A DNA stretch of 64,000 nt, from assembly GCF_024700885.2 (NCBI RefSeq), contig NZ_CP117016.1; one strand, written 5' to 3'. The DNA comes from Escherichia coli (lineage in GTDB: Bacteria; Pseudomonadota; Gammaproteobacteria; Enterobacterales; Enterobacteriaceae). The notes under the pieces are model-generated. The model was not told the origin of the DNA. It saw only the letters and a program-made list of their open reading frames with translations, and did no database searches. Below, piece by piece: positions 12,785-15,386 of the stretch (positions are counted from its first letter, which is position 1; every line of letters begins with the position of its first letter). Position numbers and translations under genes: made by a program.

Positions 12785-13441
12785 TTATTCTTGTTTATAC
12801 TCATCGATCCCCTCCTGAACATCCTCATAAAAACTAACCACATTGTCATCCTTAAACACAATCGCCACATCACAAAACTCTTTCAATGAATTCAAACTAT
12901 GTGAAACCATTAAAAAACTAGATTCTTTATGCCTTTCTTTAAACAATTGAGCGCATTTTTCTTTAAACCTGGCATCACCGACTGCAGTTACTTCATCGAC
13001 GATATAATAATCAAACTTAAATGCCATGCTTAAACCAAAGCCTAAACGCGATCGCATACCAGATGAGTAAGTTTTAATCGGCATATCGAAGTACTTACCG
13101 AGTTCGGCAAATTCTTCGACAAACTCAATTTTCTCTTTCAGCTCTTCTTGCTTCGCGTATAACCGCGCAACAAATTTTACGTTTTCGCGTCCGGTTAAAC
13201 TTCCCTGAAATCCACCTGCGAGGCCGACTGGCCATGATATTGTTTTATTAGTGATGATCTTTCCACTGTCGGGGCGGTCAATGCCGCCAATCATTCTCAG
13301 TAACGTTGATTTACCCGCTCCGTTGCGACCAATAAAGGCAACACTTTTTCCTGAAGGGATTTCAATATTTAAATCCTTAAAGACATAATGTCGACCCGCT
13401 GGCGTGCGATATGACTTCGTCAAATTTTCAATCTTAATCAT
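12785..13441 (-). CDS. kpsT: Capsule export ABC transporter ATP-binding protein KpsT
   Basis: 218 aa; Walker A GRNGAGKST, ABC signature YSSGMRSRL, Walker B YYIVDE; overlaps the kpsM stop. Confidence 0.92.
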   Translation of the reverse strand: MIKIENLTKSYRTPAGRHYVFKDLNIEIPSGKSVAFIGRNGAGKSTLLRMIGGIDRPDSGKIITNKTISWPVGLAGGFQGSLTGRENVKFVARLYAKQEELKEKIEFVEEFAELGKYFDMPIKTYSSGMRSRLGFGLSMAFKFDYYIVDEVTAVGDARFKEKCAQLFKERHKESSFLMVSHSLNSLKEFCDVAIVFKDDNVVSFYEDVQEGIDEYKQE

Positions 13442-14214
13442 GATGTCAGCATTGCCTCTTCACGCGTTCGGTATAAAGCCAGACCGATGAACAGGGTGAC
13501 CAGAGTGAACATTGCAAGGTAGTTCAGACTAACGCCTTCGCTGATATAGCCAGGCATAACTGCCTCGCGGCTTAACTCTACGACATGCACTAATGGGTTC
13601 CAGAGTAGATATGACCAGTATTGCTTTGGAATTGAGTGCAGAGGGAACATGATGCAGGAGATGAAATACAGCGGCTTAAGCAGTATCGGCAGGACCTTTT
13701 GCATTTCAGGGAAAGTCTTACCAACGACCATGAATATTAAGCCGACGCCACATGAAAGAATGATTAACAAACTCCAGGTGAGCACAAGTTGTAAAAAATT
13801 TGTTATCTCGAAATATTCGCCTGCCATCCTGACAATGAGCATAAGCAGAATATAAACAGCAACGTAAATCAGCGTCTCAAGCAGGGCGCGCGCAATGATC
13901 GTATCGATGGGTTTTACTGGGCGATAATTAAACAGCCCCAGGTTCGCTTCAATAGCACTTACAGAACGTTTGCTGATACTGCTAAAGATAAAAAAGGGAA
14001 TCAGGCCATTAAGTAAAAACACCGGGAATGAGATGTCTGGCATCGTGCGGTGCATAATGTAACCAAAAATGCCCAACAGTATCAGCAAATGCGCAGAGGG
14101 TTCGAGAATCGCCCACAGATATCCCAGACGGAACTTACCAAAGCGTGTTCGTATTTCTCGTAGAAATAATGCCTCTACGGTGACTTTCTGGACTTCAAAT
14201 CCACTTCTTGCCAT
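13438..14214 (-). CDS. kpsM: Capsule export ABC transporter permease KpsM
   Basis: Polytopic ABC-2 type permease; start chosen at MARSGFEVQK (about 258 aa) rather than the longer track ORF, because an ops-like element lies inside the longer ORF. Confidence 0.88.
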   Translation of the reverse strand: MARSGFEVQKVTVEALFLREIRTRFGKFRLGYLWAILEPSAHLLILLGIFGYIMHRTMPDISFPVFLLNGLIPFFIFSSISKRSVSAIEANLGLFNYRPVKPIDTIIARALLETLIYVAVYILLMLIVRMAGEYFEITNFLQLVLTWSLLIILSCGVGLIFMVVGKTFPEMQKVLPILLKPLYFISCIMFPLHSIPKQYWSYLLWNPLVHVVELSREAVMPGYISEGVSLNYLAMFTLVTLFIGLALYRTREEAMLTS

Positions 14215-14243
14215 TTGATGATGTGATCCTAATCTCTTCAGGT

Positions 14244-14255
14244 ACGCTACCGCCC
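14244..14255 (-). promoter_or_regulatory. ops-like element (RfaH recruitment site, JUMPstart) in the region 3 leader about 30 nt upstream of the kpsM start
   Basis: Minus strand reads GGCGGTAGCGTA, matching the ops core GGCGGTAG at the position expected ahead of kpsM. Confidence 0.65.
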
Positions 14256-14349
14256 TTGGCTTAACAGCTACCAATACACTGGAGGTAATGCTTATTTGTA
14301 ACTGGATAAAATTTACTCAGACGGTTTGACCTTTTTAATAGCCGCAAAA

Positions 14350-14616
14350 AATTTCAGCAGAAATTATTTCCGCAGGGATAAATAGATCTATTTCCGTCTC
14401 GTTTCTTCTAATCCATTCTTCAGGCATGAATGTATTCGGTCTTCTGGTAATTTCAGAAAACTGGCCGTTTTAGAATGTAAAGTTAATTTCTCAGGAAATT
14501 ATTTCTACCTCTTTTTGCTTAACCAATATGGCTTGAAAAAGACGTAAAGCAGCATGCGTTCTGGATTACTCCGGAACACACTTATTCAAAATGGGCTGCT
14601 AATTTCGCAAGAAATT
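14350..14616. repeat. Three copies of a palindrome AATTTC-N4-GAAATT, each followed by ATTT(C/T), in the kps region 3 upstream/leader region; degenerate half-copies continue to about 15070
   Basis: Read directly: aatttcagcagaaatt (about 14350), aatttctcaggaaatt (about 14485), aatttcgcaagaaatt (about 14601); half-sites near 14449, 15000 and 15058. Confidence 0.7.
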
Positions 14617-15386
14617 ATTTTTTACTATTACTGTTAACTACTTGATTATAATACCACCTATGAATTTTATGCGTAACAATACCTGCAATCTGTTTCAAAC
14701 CAGAACACACGCGATTGATTACCAATAAATTGTTCACCGAGAAACTATTTCCCTATTTAAAATTCACTCGTGTACTTCTTATTTATATCTACAGCCCCCT
14801 CTTTACAGCCATATTTGTGATTTATATCACATTTAAATGGTGTTATTTAAGTTGCATCAATAATCCCGAAGGTAATTATTTTCGTCGATTAAAATATACA
14901 TCTTGATTATTTTGTGTATTTATTTTAACCAGTGTTACAACCAACACCATCCCTCAGTAGATATACCTGAGCAGACATTTCTTAAAATTGACGAATAGTT
15001 TCCCTGGAAATTATTATGCTTATTTGAAATTCCCTTTCTGATTATCTCCAGTAATTTTACTAATTTCCAGGCTACACAAAATACAGATCACATAAGAATT
15101 ATCCTATATGTTTTGACCTATCAATTGTTACTCAATGATTTATTACAACTATTAATAATCATAATGTGTCAAAACACTTAAGCATCTTTACAGTCTTAGA
15201 AAGGTGTCGATTAACGAAGGCTACATGGTGAAAAACAGGTTCCTTCAGTGTTACCGAATATTCCGTGGTGGGCTGGAGGGAGATAATTCTTGCTACATCG
15301 AAACTCAGCCCGGTGAGCGGGTTTGACAGTTCCGCACTCACCATTGGGCTAAGGGTTATCAGGTGGGGTTAAGGAAATGGCAATAC

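Follow-up and report, generated by a model that had tools for sequence, protein, structure and literature searches.

The stretch of Escherichia coli DNA considered here, 64,000 nucleotides of contig NZ_CP117016.1 (assembly GCF_024700885.2; hereafter the window), contains a kps capsule locus in which the leader of kpsM carries a reiterated palindrome, AATTTC-N4-GAAATT. The kpsM gene (258 amino acids) starts at an ATG at 14214 and reads along the minus strand, and it is followed by kpsT and then by a region 2 of CDP-glycerol type; yghD and gsp genes are found upstream of it on the same strand. The interval 14350-15070 is intergenic and belongs to the region 3 leader ahead of kpsM. An earlier reading made from the letters alone (the original prediction) had placed the palindromes in this leader, and both the minus-strand kpsM and the JUMPstart element at 14243-14281 bear out that placement. 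The leader region is 100% identical to that of E. coli MLI114. The ops element, at which RfaH loads, sits 28 bp upstream of kpsM (PMC8960920). The program-made list of open reading frames runs kpsM (13438-14274) out to a TTG at 14274, over JUMPstart/ops; the annotated ATG at 14214 is kept in all alleles.

An exact search finds AATTTC-N4-GAAATT three times in the window, always within the interval above; the expectation from shuffling is 0.01, and none of 100 shuffles reaches three. These copies start at 14350, 14485 and 14601, share their arms, differ in their spacers (AGCA, TCAG and GCAA), are 135 and 116 bp apart, and are each followed by ATTATTT(C/T), in agreement with the original prediction of three perfect 16-bp palindromes spaced at about 115-135 bp with an ATTT(C/T) motif behind each. 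The degenerate half-sites that it had noticed further upstream turn out to be periodic: on the window strand, copies lie at 14731 (..GAGAAACTATTTCC), 14862 (AATCCCGAAGGTAATT) and 14997 (AGTTTCCCTGGAAATT, one mismatch), and repeat finding together with mismatch searches gives start-to-start spacings of 135, 116, 130, 131 and 135 bp for the six copies. In the sense of kpsM the element reads (G/A)AAAUAAUUUC-N4-GAAAUU.

Are the palindromes transcribed? In K5, transcription from PR3, the region 3 promoter, begins 741 nt ahead of kpsM, at a promoter that has a -10 element and lacks a -35 (PMC8960920). This start was moved onto the window through an alignment with Nissle (K5), which is without 116 nt of the window leader and has one extra A. 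Because the transferred start (around 15070) precedes every copy, all six are transcribed, and they span +59 to +721. A promoter scan gives a sigma-70-like pair, TGGAAA-17-GATAAT, at 15041-15069 on the minus strand, about 30 nt inside the mapped transcript; the scan yields two matches in total against 4.8 expected in shuffles, and the pair is probably not significant. The features of the leader are as follows, with plus signs counting from the transferred start.

15083-15078, minus strand: -10 hexamer TATTTT of PR3, with the inferred transcription start at about 15070-15073 (transferred from the published K5 start)
15061-15071, minus strand: 5′-terminal strand CCUGGAAAUUA, a seventh half-site copy of the GAAAUU arm, which pairs with S6
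14997-15013, minus strand: S6, one-mismatch copy, +59 to +74
14862-14877, minus strand: S5, degenerate copy, sense AAUAAUUAC-CUUC-GGGAUUAUU, +194 to +209
14731-14753, minus strand: S4, degenerate copy, sense GGGAAAUAGUUUC-UCGG-UGAACA, +325 to +340
14601-14616, minus strand: P3, perfect copy AATTTC-GCAA-GAAATT, in long-form leaders only, +455 to +470
14485-14500, minus strand: P2, perfect copy AATTTC-TCAG-GAAATT, +571 to +586
14350-14365, minus strand: P1, perfect copy AATTTC-AGCA-GAAATT (sense AAUUUC-UGCU-GAAAUU), +706 to +721
14243-14281, minus strand: JUMPstart/ops element at the 3′ end of the leader (Rfam RF01707, 58.5 bits, E = 4e-12)

The leader is about 66% A+T overall (59-76% across 78-nt windows), and its sense strand is poor in C (14% C, 20% G). 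Small open reading frames were sought in it, and none was convincing. In an Rfam scan of the region JUMPstart alone passes; the other match, ssnA, stays below threshold (17.3 bits against a cut-off of 37.3), and the palindromes match no family.

Conservation of the arms and freedom of the centres

The leader is carried by 1626 of 5426 complete E. coli genomes and matches a median of one place in each. The remaining roughly 63 kb of the window and the PR1 region hold no perfect copy, and matches with two mismatches are near chance (10 against 5.3 expected); one near-match, at 686-706, was discarded as a further copy, being the region of the kpsD start codon. The element thus does not behave as a dispersed repeat of the REP/BIME, ERIC or MITE kind.

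For comparison, 44 distinct Escherichia leader alleles with 77-100% identity were assembled from genomes and a metagenome scan, and the palindromes are present in all of them. The arms of P1 are invariant in 44 of 44 alleles. P2 is perfect in 39 of the 40 alleles that could be scored, its arm changes being solely C to U and A to G, both of which are compatible with G-U pairing in the sense strand. P3 is perfect in 18 of 19 long-form alleles, with four different spacers, and its lone arm change, in E. whittamii, is again A to G and leaves a U-G pair. The arms are kept across E. coli, Escherichia sp. E1V33, E. whittamii and a lineage with 78% overall identity, in which P1, P3 and S6 are all perfect palindromes with different spacers. 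P2 of that lineage (L002 (Esc4) 1502-2658; L106, L113, L114) is split by a 10-bp insertion, ACGATGGGGC. When the loci of KpsM homologues were retrieved from 43 species, palindromes were found in three Escherichia loci and in none of the 40 other species, and no repeated-arm palindrome lay upstream of kpsM in any other genus. The comparison of kpsM leaders that the original prediction had proposed therefore speaks for conservation within Escherichia and against it outside the genus.

The rates of change divide the element sharply. Over the 44 alleles, the palindrome arms have taken 0.33-0.39 parsimony steps per site and the 4-nt centres 2.3-2.7, compared with 0.83-0.86 in the rest of the leader and 1.27 at the four-fold degenerate sites of kpsM; relative to the synonymous rate of kpsM, the arms evolve at about 0.3 times and the centres at about twice the pace. 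The arms fall below random blocks of the leader (P = 0.002-0.004), and the centres lie above the four-fold sites (P = 1.5e-4). Conserved arms around a hypervariable centre are seen at all six positions, and also in the 78%-identical lineage. At S5 there are 10 distinct spacers among the 44 alleles, and the four spacer positions of S4 have taken 1, 5, 8 and 4 steps. Purifying selection acts on the arms and leaves the 4-nt centres free to change. Possible reasons for the fast centres are hypermutability of loops, gene conversion between modules, or constraint on the synonymous sites with which they are compared.

Direction of arm changes and protein-binding readings

The few changes that the arms tolerate have a direction. 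At S5, S4, P3, P2 and P1, there are 16 events of the sense G-U type, at seven pair positions, and one of the A-C type; the background ratio of purine to pyrimidine transitions in the leader is 257:161. Since a G-U on one strand is an A-C on the other, and a symmetric dimer cannot distinguish the two, such an asymmetry is unexpected for a dimer on duplex DNA, for which both arms should be equally tolerant. The numbers for P1-P3 alone are small.

This result bears directly on an alternative in which the palindromes would be duplex-DNA operators for a dimeric or tetrameric helix-turn-helix regulator, acting as roadblocks or as a looping scaffold along the leader. We consider this reading unlikely, and it is the rival that calls for the closest weighing. 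An arrangement of six, four and six base pairs with a free centre and with half-site centres 10 bp apart is classical for helix-turn-helix dimers, and the sequence of the arms, beyond their complementarity, has been kept in old paralogous copies. A candidate regulator family can even be named: an odd palindrome formed by the conserved left block, GGAAAT-A-ATTTC, resembles the E. coli IclR box TGGAAATNATTTCCA and, with a third GAAAT in alternating orientation, would make a 'three-box' site of the kind documented, like the IclR consensus, for the IclR family (PMC8222616). Against this 15-bp palindrome P2 has two mismatches and P1 three (12 and 11 of 14 positions, these being the two best copies). 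However, the third box stands at a 4-bp spacing unlike the arrangements described for the family (PMC8222616), and matches to the box with up to three mismatches are not enriched in the window (5 against 4.15 expected). Neither motif has a copy in the PR1 region (taken from MLI114), so that the palindrome is not an operator shared by PR1 and PR3, although the two are co-regulated, and the rest of the window (63 kb) is likewise free of the motif. Positions of +59 to +721 downstream of the start are unusual for operators, the spacings of 116-135 bp are out of helical phase, and a literature search gave no regulator with such a consensus.

The original prediction did not recognise a standard CRP, IHF or SlyA consensus in the palindromes, and consensus comparisons agree. 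The palindromes do not match the CRP operator (TGTGA-N6-TCACA). The FNR operator (TTGAT-N4-ATCAA) has the same spacer and different arms, and its best leader matches, with two mismatches, lie elsewhere. The 12-bp SlyA palindrome (TTAGCAAGCTAA-like) has no match with up to three mismatches in 14215-15300. Among consensus matches for FNR, Fur, SlyA, IHF and H-NS, none coincides with a palindrome.

One candidate protein site in the leader does stand out. A perfect CRP core, TGTGAT-TTAT-ATCACA, lies at 14816-14831, at about +240 of the kpsMT leader, and agrees with 18 of the 22 positions of the full consensus. It is the sole such site in the window (0.03 expected), and its arms are invariant in the 44 alleles around a variable centre. 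To judge from its letters it is a probable CRP site; it could also be another leader hairpin. CRP is absent from the 2022 review of kps regulation. This core likewise has the form of 6-N4-6 with invariant arms and a variable centre, and it makes protein sites in the leader plausible. H-NS, SlyA, FNR and Fur are reported to bind in the PR3 region (PMC8960920).

Could H-NS instead nucleate with high affinity at the repeats, alone or together with SlyA, so that they organise a silencing filament or bridge and thereby aid the switch between 20 and 37°C? H-NS has binding sites on either side of the PR3 start, and the one on the 3′ side (+141 to +219) is essential for repression in the cold (PMC8960920). 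The leader is AT-rich and the motif holds AATT/AAATT tracts. Mapped on the window, however, the published 3′ footprint covers S5 only, one copy of six, and the best leader matches to the H-NS consensus TCGATAAATT lie away from the palindromes. H-NS requires neither exact dyad symmetry nor the conserved C...G, and the strand-asymmetric substitutions would be left unexplained. We regard this possibility as distinctly improbable.

Folding of the leader RNA

The explanation that we tentatively favour, and to which we give just under an even chance of being correct, is that each palindrome forms the stem of a short, AU-rich tetraloop hairpin, closed by a C-G pair, in the sense RNA of the kpsMT leader. 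The conserved inner C...G would be the pair closing the loop, which is the most useful position for a G-C pair in an AU stem. The evidence from folding is as follows.

At P1, the flanks GCGG...UUU(U/G)UUGCGG lengthen the helix through G-U pairs into an extended sense hairpin at 14342-14375. The alleles use different registers of the U-tract and have no single consensus structure, and P1 was folded allele by allele: 15 of 15 variants form a sense hairpin of 12-14 bp with -8.3 to -13.8 kcal/mol, and the antisense folds are poorer (-3.6 to -10). Changes in U-tract length and changes between U and G keep the pairing. The window allele of P1 has a stability z score of -2.40 in sense versus -0.68 in antisense. 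In long-form alleles the outer pairs of P2 extend over 14473-14511. S4, whose left block GGAAATAGTTTC is nearly invariant, prefers in sense the fold GGGAAA-UAG-UUUCUC (14739-14753). Compared with shuffles, the z scores are -1.54 for P2, -0.54 for P3, and about 0 for S4 and S5.

S6 takes part in a different structure. Its left arm, UAAUUUCCAGG, supplies the 3′ strand to a predicted long-range stem of 8-11 bp with the 5′ end of the transcript (15061-15071 / 15003-15013), in which about +2 to +12 of the transcript are paired; the 88-nt 5′ domain has a folding energy of -18.3 kcal/mol (z = -2.93). The changes in this stem comprise one compensatory replacement of A-U by G-C and four one-sided changes to G-U. 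The deviating substitution pattern of S6 would be explained by this pairing of its left arm with the 5′ end.

A global RNAalifold of the leader is dominated by the 116-nt gap and by implausible long-range pairs, and sliding windows were used instead. Their summed energy in sense is -213, against -101 ± 17 for column shuffles (z = -6.6), and in antisense -135 against -77 ± 16 (z = -3.5). Pairing is thus preserved in the manner expected of conserved RNA hairpins, through one true compensatory pair (the stem of the 5′ end with S6) and many one-sided G-U changes; the otherwise invariant arms of P1-P3 speak neither for nor against it. The original prediction had offered two readings, repeated sites for a dimeric regulator or, if transcribed, a series of small RNA hairpins. 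The second has gained from the transcription of all copies, from the sense-strand asymmetry and from the sense structure, and the first has been weakened.

Several observations weigh against the hairpins. By themselves the cores have little stability (-2.4 to -3.6 kcal/mol in P1-P3, about 0 to -1 in S4-S6), and only P1 and the 5′ domain do better than shuffled sequence. Taken alone, S6 folds better in antisense, and most of the substitutions in its arms are of the A-C kind. If the count is restricted to the three perfect palindromes, the bias towards sense wobble amounts to 3-4 events versus 0, and the event counts may be inflated by recombination between alleles, which is evident in the data. 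Finally, copies with flanks that have drifted to 35-50% identity still share one stem sequence, and P1-P3 show not a single compensatory swap. Pairing by itself does not account for such sameness in old copies; something more is needed, be it a sequence-specific reader, arms exchanged between modules, or gene conversion. The pattern of letters suggests, in addition to the hairpins, a sequence-specific reader or arm exchange between modules.

Two familiar kinds of RNA element do not fit. An intrinsic terminator is not found at P2, P3 or S4-S6, which are AU stems without a U-tract, and a terminator scan gives one weak candidate, an alternative fold of P1 (GCGGAAA-UAA-UUUCUGC followed by UGAAAUUUUU), where 0.7 are expected in shuffles. 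An RNA thermometer of the fourU or ROSE type is not supported either: 136 nt separate the kpsM ATG from the end of the nearest copy, and the isolated cores are predicted to stay folded at 20 as well as at 37°C.

A probably modular leader and its possible meaning

When the six units of about 130 nt are aligned, clear similarity is confined to the first 45 nt or so, and elsewhere identity is 35-51%. Tandem Repeats Finder detects no array in the leader. The regular spacing of 116-135 bp and paralogous second hairpins nevertheless make the leader look like an old, decayed tandem array of such units, in which the hairpin stems appear to be the best-preserved part of an anciently reiterated module. 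Each module would consist of hairpin A (AAUUUC-N4-GAAAUU, with GAAAU-A before it) and a more variable hairpin B, and five or six tandem modules would make up nearly the whole 741- or 856-nt leader from PR3 to JUMPstart/ops. Two further features belong here.

14554-14581, minus strand: hairpin B of the P3 module, sense GUGUGUUCCGGAGUAAUCCAGAACGCAU, consensus fold -13.5 kcal/mol in sense
14495-14610, no strand assigned: 116-bp module, an alignment gap in the common 741-nt (K5-type) leader, from which it is absent

Paralogues of hairpin B lie at about 14684-14712 (S4 module) and 14439-14463 (P2 module), and a second hairpin is also placed at about 14954-14972. In the most divergent lineage, hairpin B of the P2 module has an additional C and, opposite it, an additional G, so that its stem is one pair longer.

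The ends of the 116-bp module fall in repeated blocks of P2 and P3, (A)AATAATTTC / GAAATTATTT, which leaves the exact junction ambiguous. The long leader of about 856 nt, which contains the module, occurs in at least 418 of the 1626 kps-positive complete E. coli genomes, about a quarter; the others, including K5 Nissle, have a leader of 739-745 nt with two perfect palindromes, one of them a hybrid of the P3 flank and the P2 spacer. The indel takes four steps on a tree built free of gaps. In the closest pair of short and long alleles, single-nucleotide polymorphisms cluster round the junction, a pattern that suggests allele exchange and not repeated precise deletion.

How much could recombination alone account for? 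The repeats may have no function and be left over from an old tandem amplification; short-patch gene conversion or template switching, among the palindromes or inside them, would have preserved their likeness, with the centres as mutation-prone loops. The loss or exchange of the 116-bp module by recombination in repeated blocks would agree with this, and so would spacers that outpace synonymous sites. Spacer variants are moreover common to different sites (TTGC and TCAG to S4 and P3; TCGC and TCAC to S4 and S5), as conversion would give. However, the arms evolve at about 0.3 times the synonymous rate in all six copies, including those that differ from one another and hence have not been homogenised, they are retained across E. 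coli, E1V33, E. whittamii and the 78%-identical lineage, and the changes tolerated in them are not random in direction. Pure relics are for these reasons improbable. A site of recombination or phase variation that switches leader length, and hence the capsule, on and off has been largely refuted and is very improbable indeed. The copy-number polymorphism does end in repeats and does require its four steps on the tree, but the polymorphisms clustered at the junction point to allele exchange, no recombinase gene is adjacent, and PR1 and PR3 are identical in encapsulated and unencapsulated subpopulations (King et al. 2015, PMC4468546).

The palindromes are transcribed, constrained and pairing-preserving elements of a modular leader. 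If they are hairpins, as we favour, their action would be in cis, on the RNA itself: folded into a chain of local hairpins, the long leader, free of ribosomes and poor in C, could set the survival of the transcript, or its elongation up to ops, where RfaH loads. The 5′-terminal stem closed by S6, the first copy in the transcript, might protect the 5′ end. The poverty in C would suit a leader that has to keep Rho away until RfaH has loaded. A bolder proposal, which we put forward as a doubtful one, is that the leader is a modular RNA 'rheostat': five or six two-hairpin modules with interchangeable, sequence-identical stems would be read co-transcriptionally, through RNA polymerase pausing, Rho or an RNase, or a stem-specific RNA-binding protein, and would set, in a temperature-dependent manner, the dose of transcript that reaches ops and RfaH, the gain or loss of a module (741 versus 856 nt) tuning the capsule between lineages.

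Outside the leader, a G+C-rich inverted repeat, GGTGAGCGG...CCGCACTCACC, lies at 15310-15350, between PR3 and the nearby end of yghD, and is a possible terminator or insulator separating the gsp operon from kps.

The 741-nt 5′ untranslated region (UTR) of K5 region 3 (Stevens et al. 1997; Xue et al. 2009, via PMC8960920) is the same locus, and the elements described here make up most of it. According to published work, the UTR moderates the amount of transcription that gets to kpsM, has a 3′ H-NS site and ends in ops/JUMPstart (PMC8960920); the hairpins may be the physical basis of this moderation. The accessible literature, the primary UTR paper (Xue et al. 2009) excepted, has no description of the reiterated palindromes, the modular repeats, the 5′-terminal stem or the 741/856-nt polymorphism. 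The palindromes are thus conserved and, with the same exception of the primary paper, apparently undescribed, and their role in RNA is a reading of the sequence.

Some known systems offer parallels. JUMPstart (RF01707) is another small, conserved hairpin, found on the same strand of this leader in an RfaH-dependent polysaccharide operon; it differs in having another sequence and a single copy beside ops. The 5′-terminal stem-loops of the ompA type stabilise mRNAs. The stem of S6 resembles them in its place at the extreme 5′ end and is unlike them in that one of seven copies is involved; stabilisation here would be by analogy only. The pgaA leader and CsrB/RsmZ carry many copies of one small protein-binding hairpin, of which the conserved part is the loop (GGA). 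The repeated small hairpin along an untranslated RNA is shared with the kps leader, in which, unlike those RNAs, the loops are the most variable part and the stems are conserved, GGA occurring in or beside the loop in some copies only. The capsule (cssA) 5′ UTR of Neisseria meningitidis is an RNA thermosensor. Thermosensors of this type have in common with the kps leader AU-rich leader hairpins, a thermoregulated capsule operon of the ABC type and a natural polymorphism of repeat number in the leader; the kps hairpins, in contrast, lie 136-800 nt upstream of the kpsM start and leave the ribosome-binding site uncovered.

Group 2 capsules (K1, K2 and K5) are major virulence factors of extra-intestinal E. 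coli, and their region 3 promoter depends on an unusually long 5′ UTR with an unexplained mode of action. This UTR can now be resolved into defined elements, namely six palindromes, a 5′-terminal stem, second hairpins and a probable CRP site, and the natural polymorphism between five and six modules makes a direct comparison possible. If the hairpins do control elongation or RNA stability before RfaH loads, they would add a layer of RNA control on top of that by H-NS, SlyA and RfaH.

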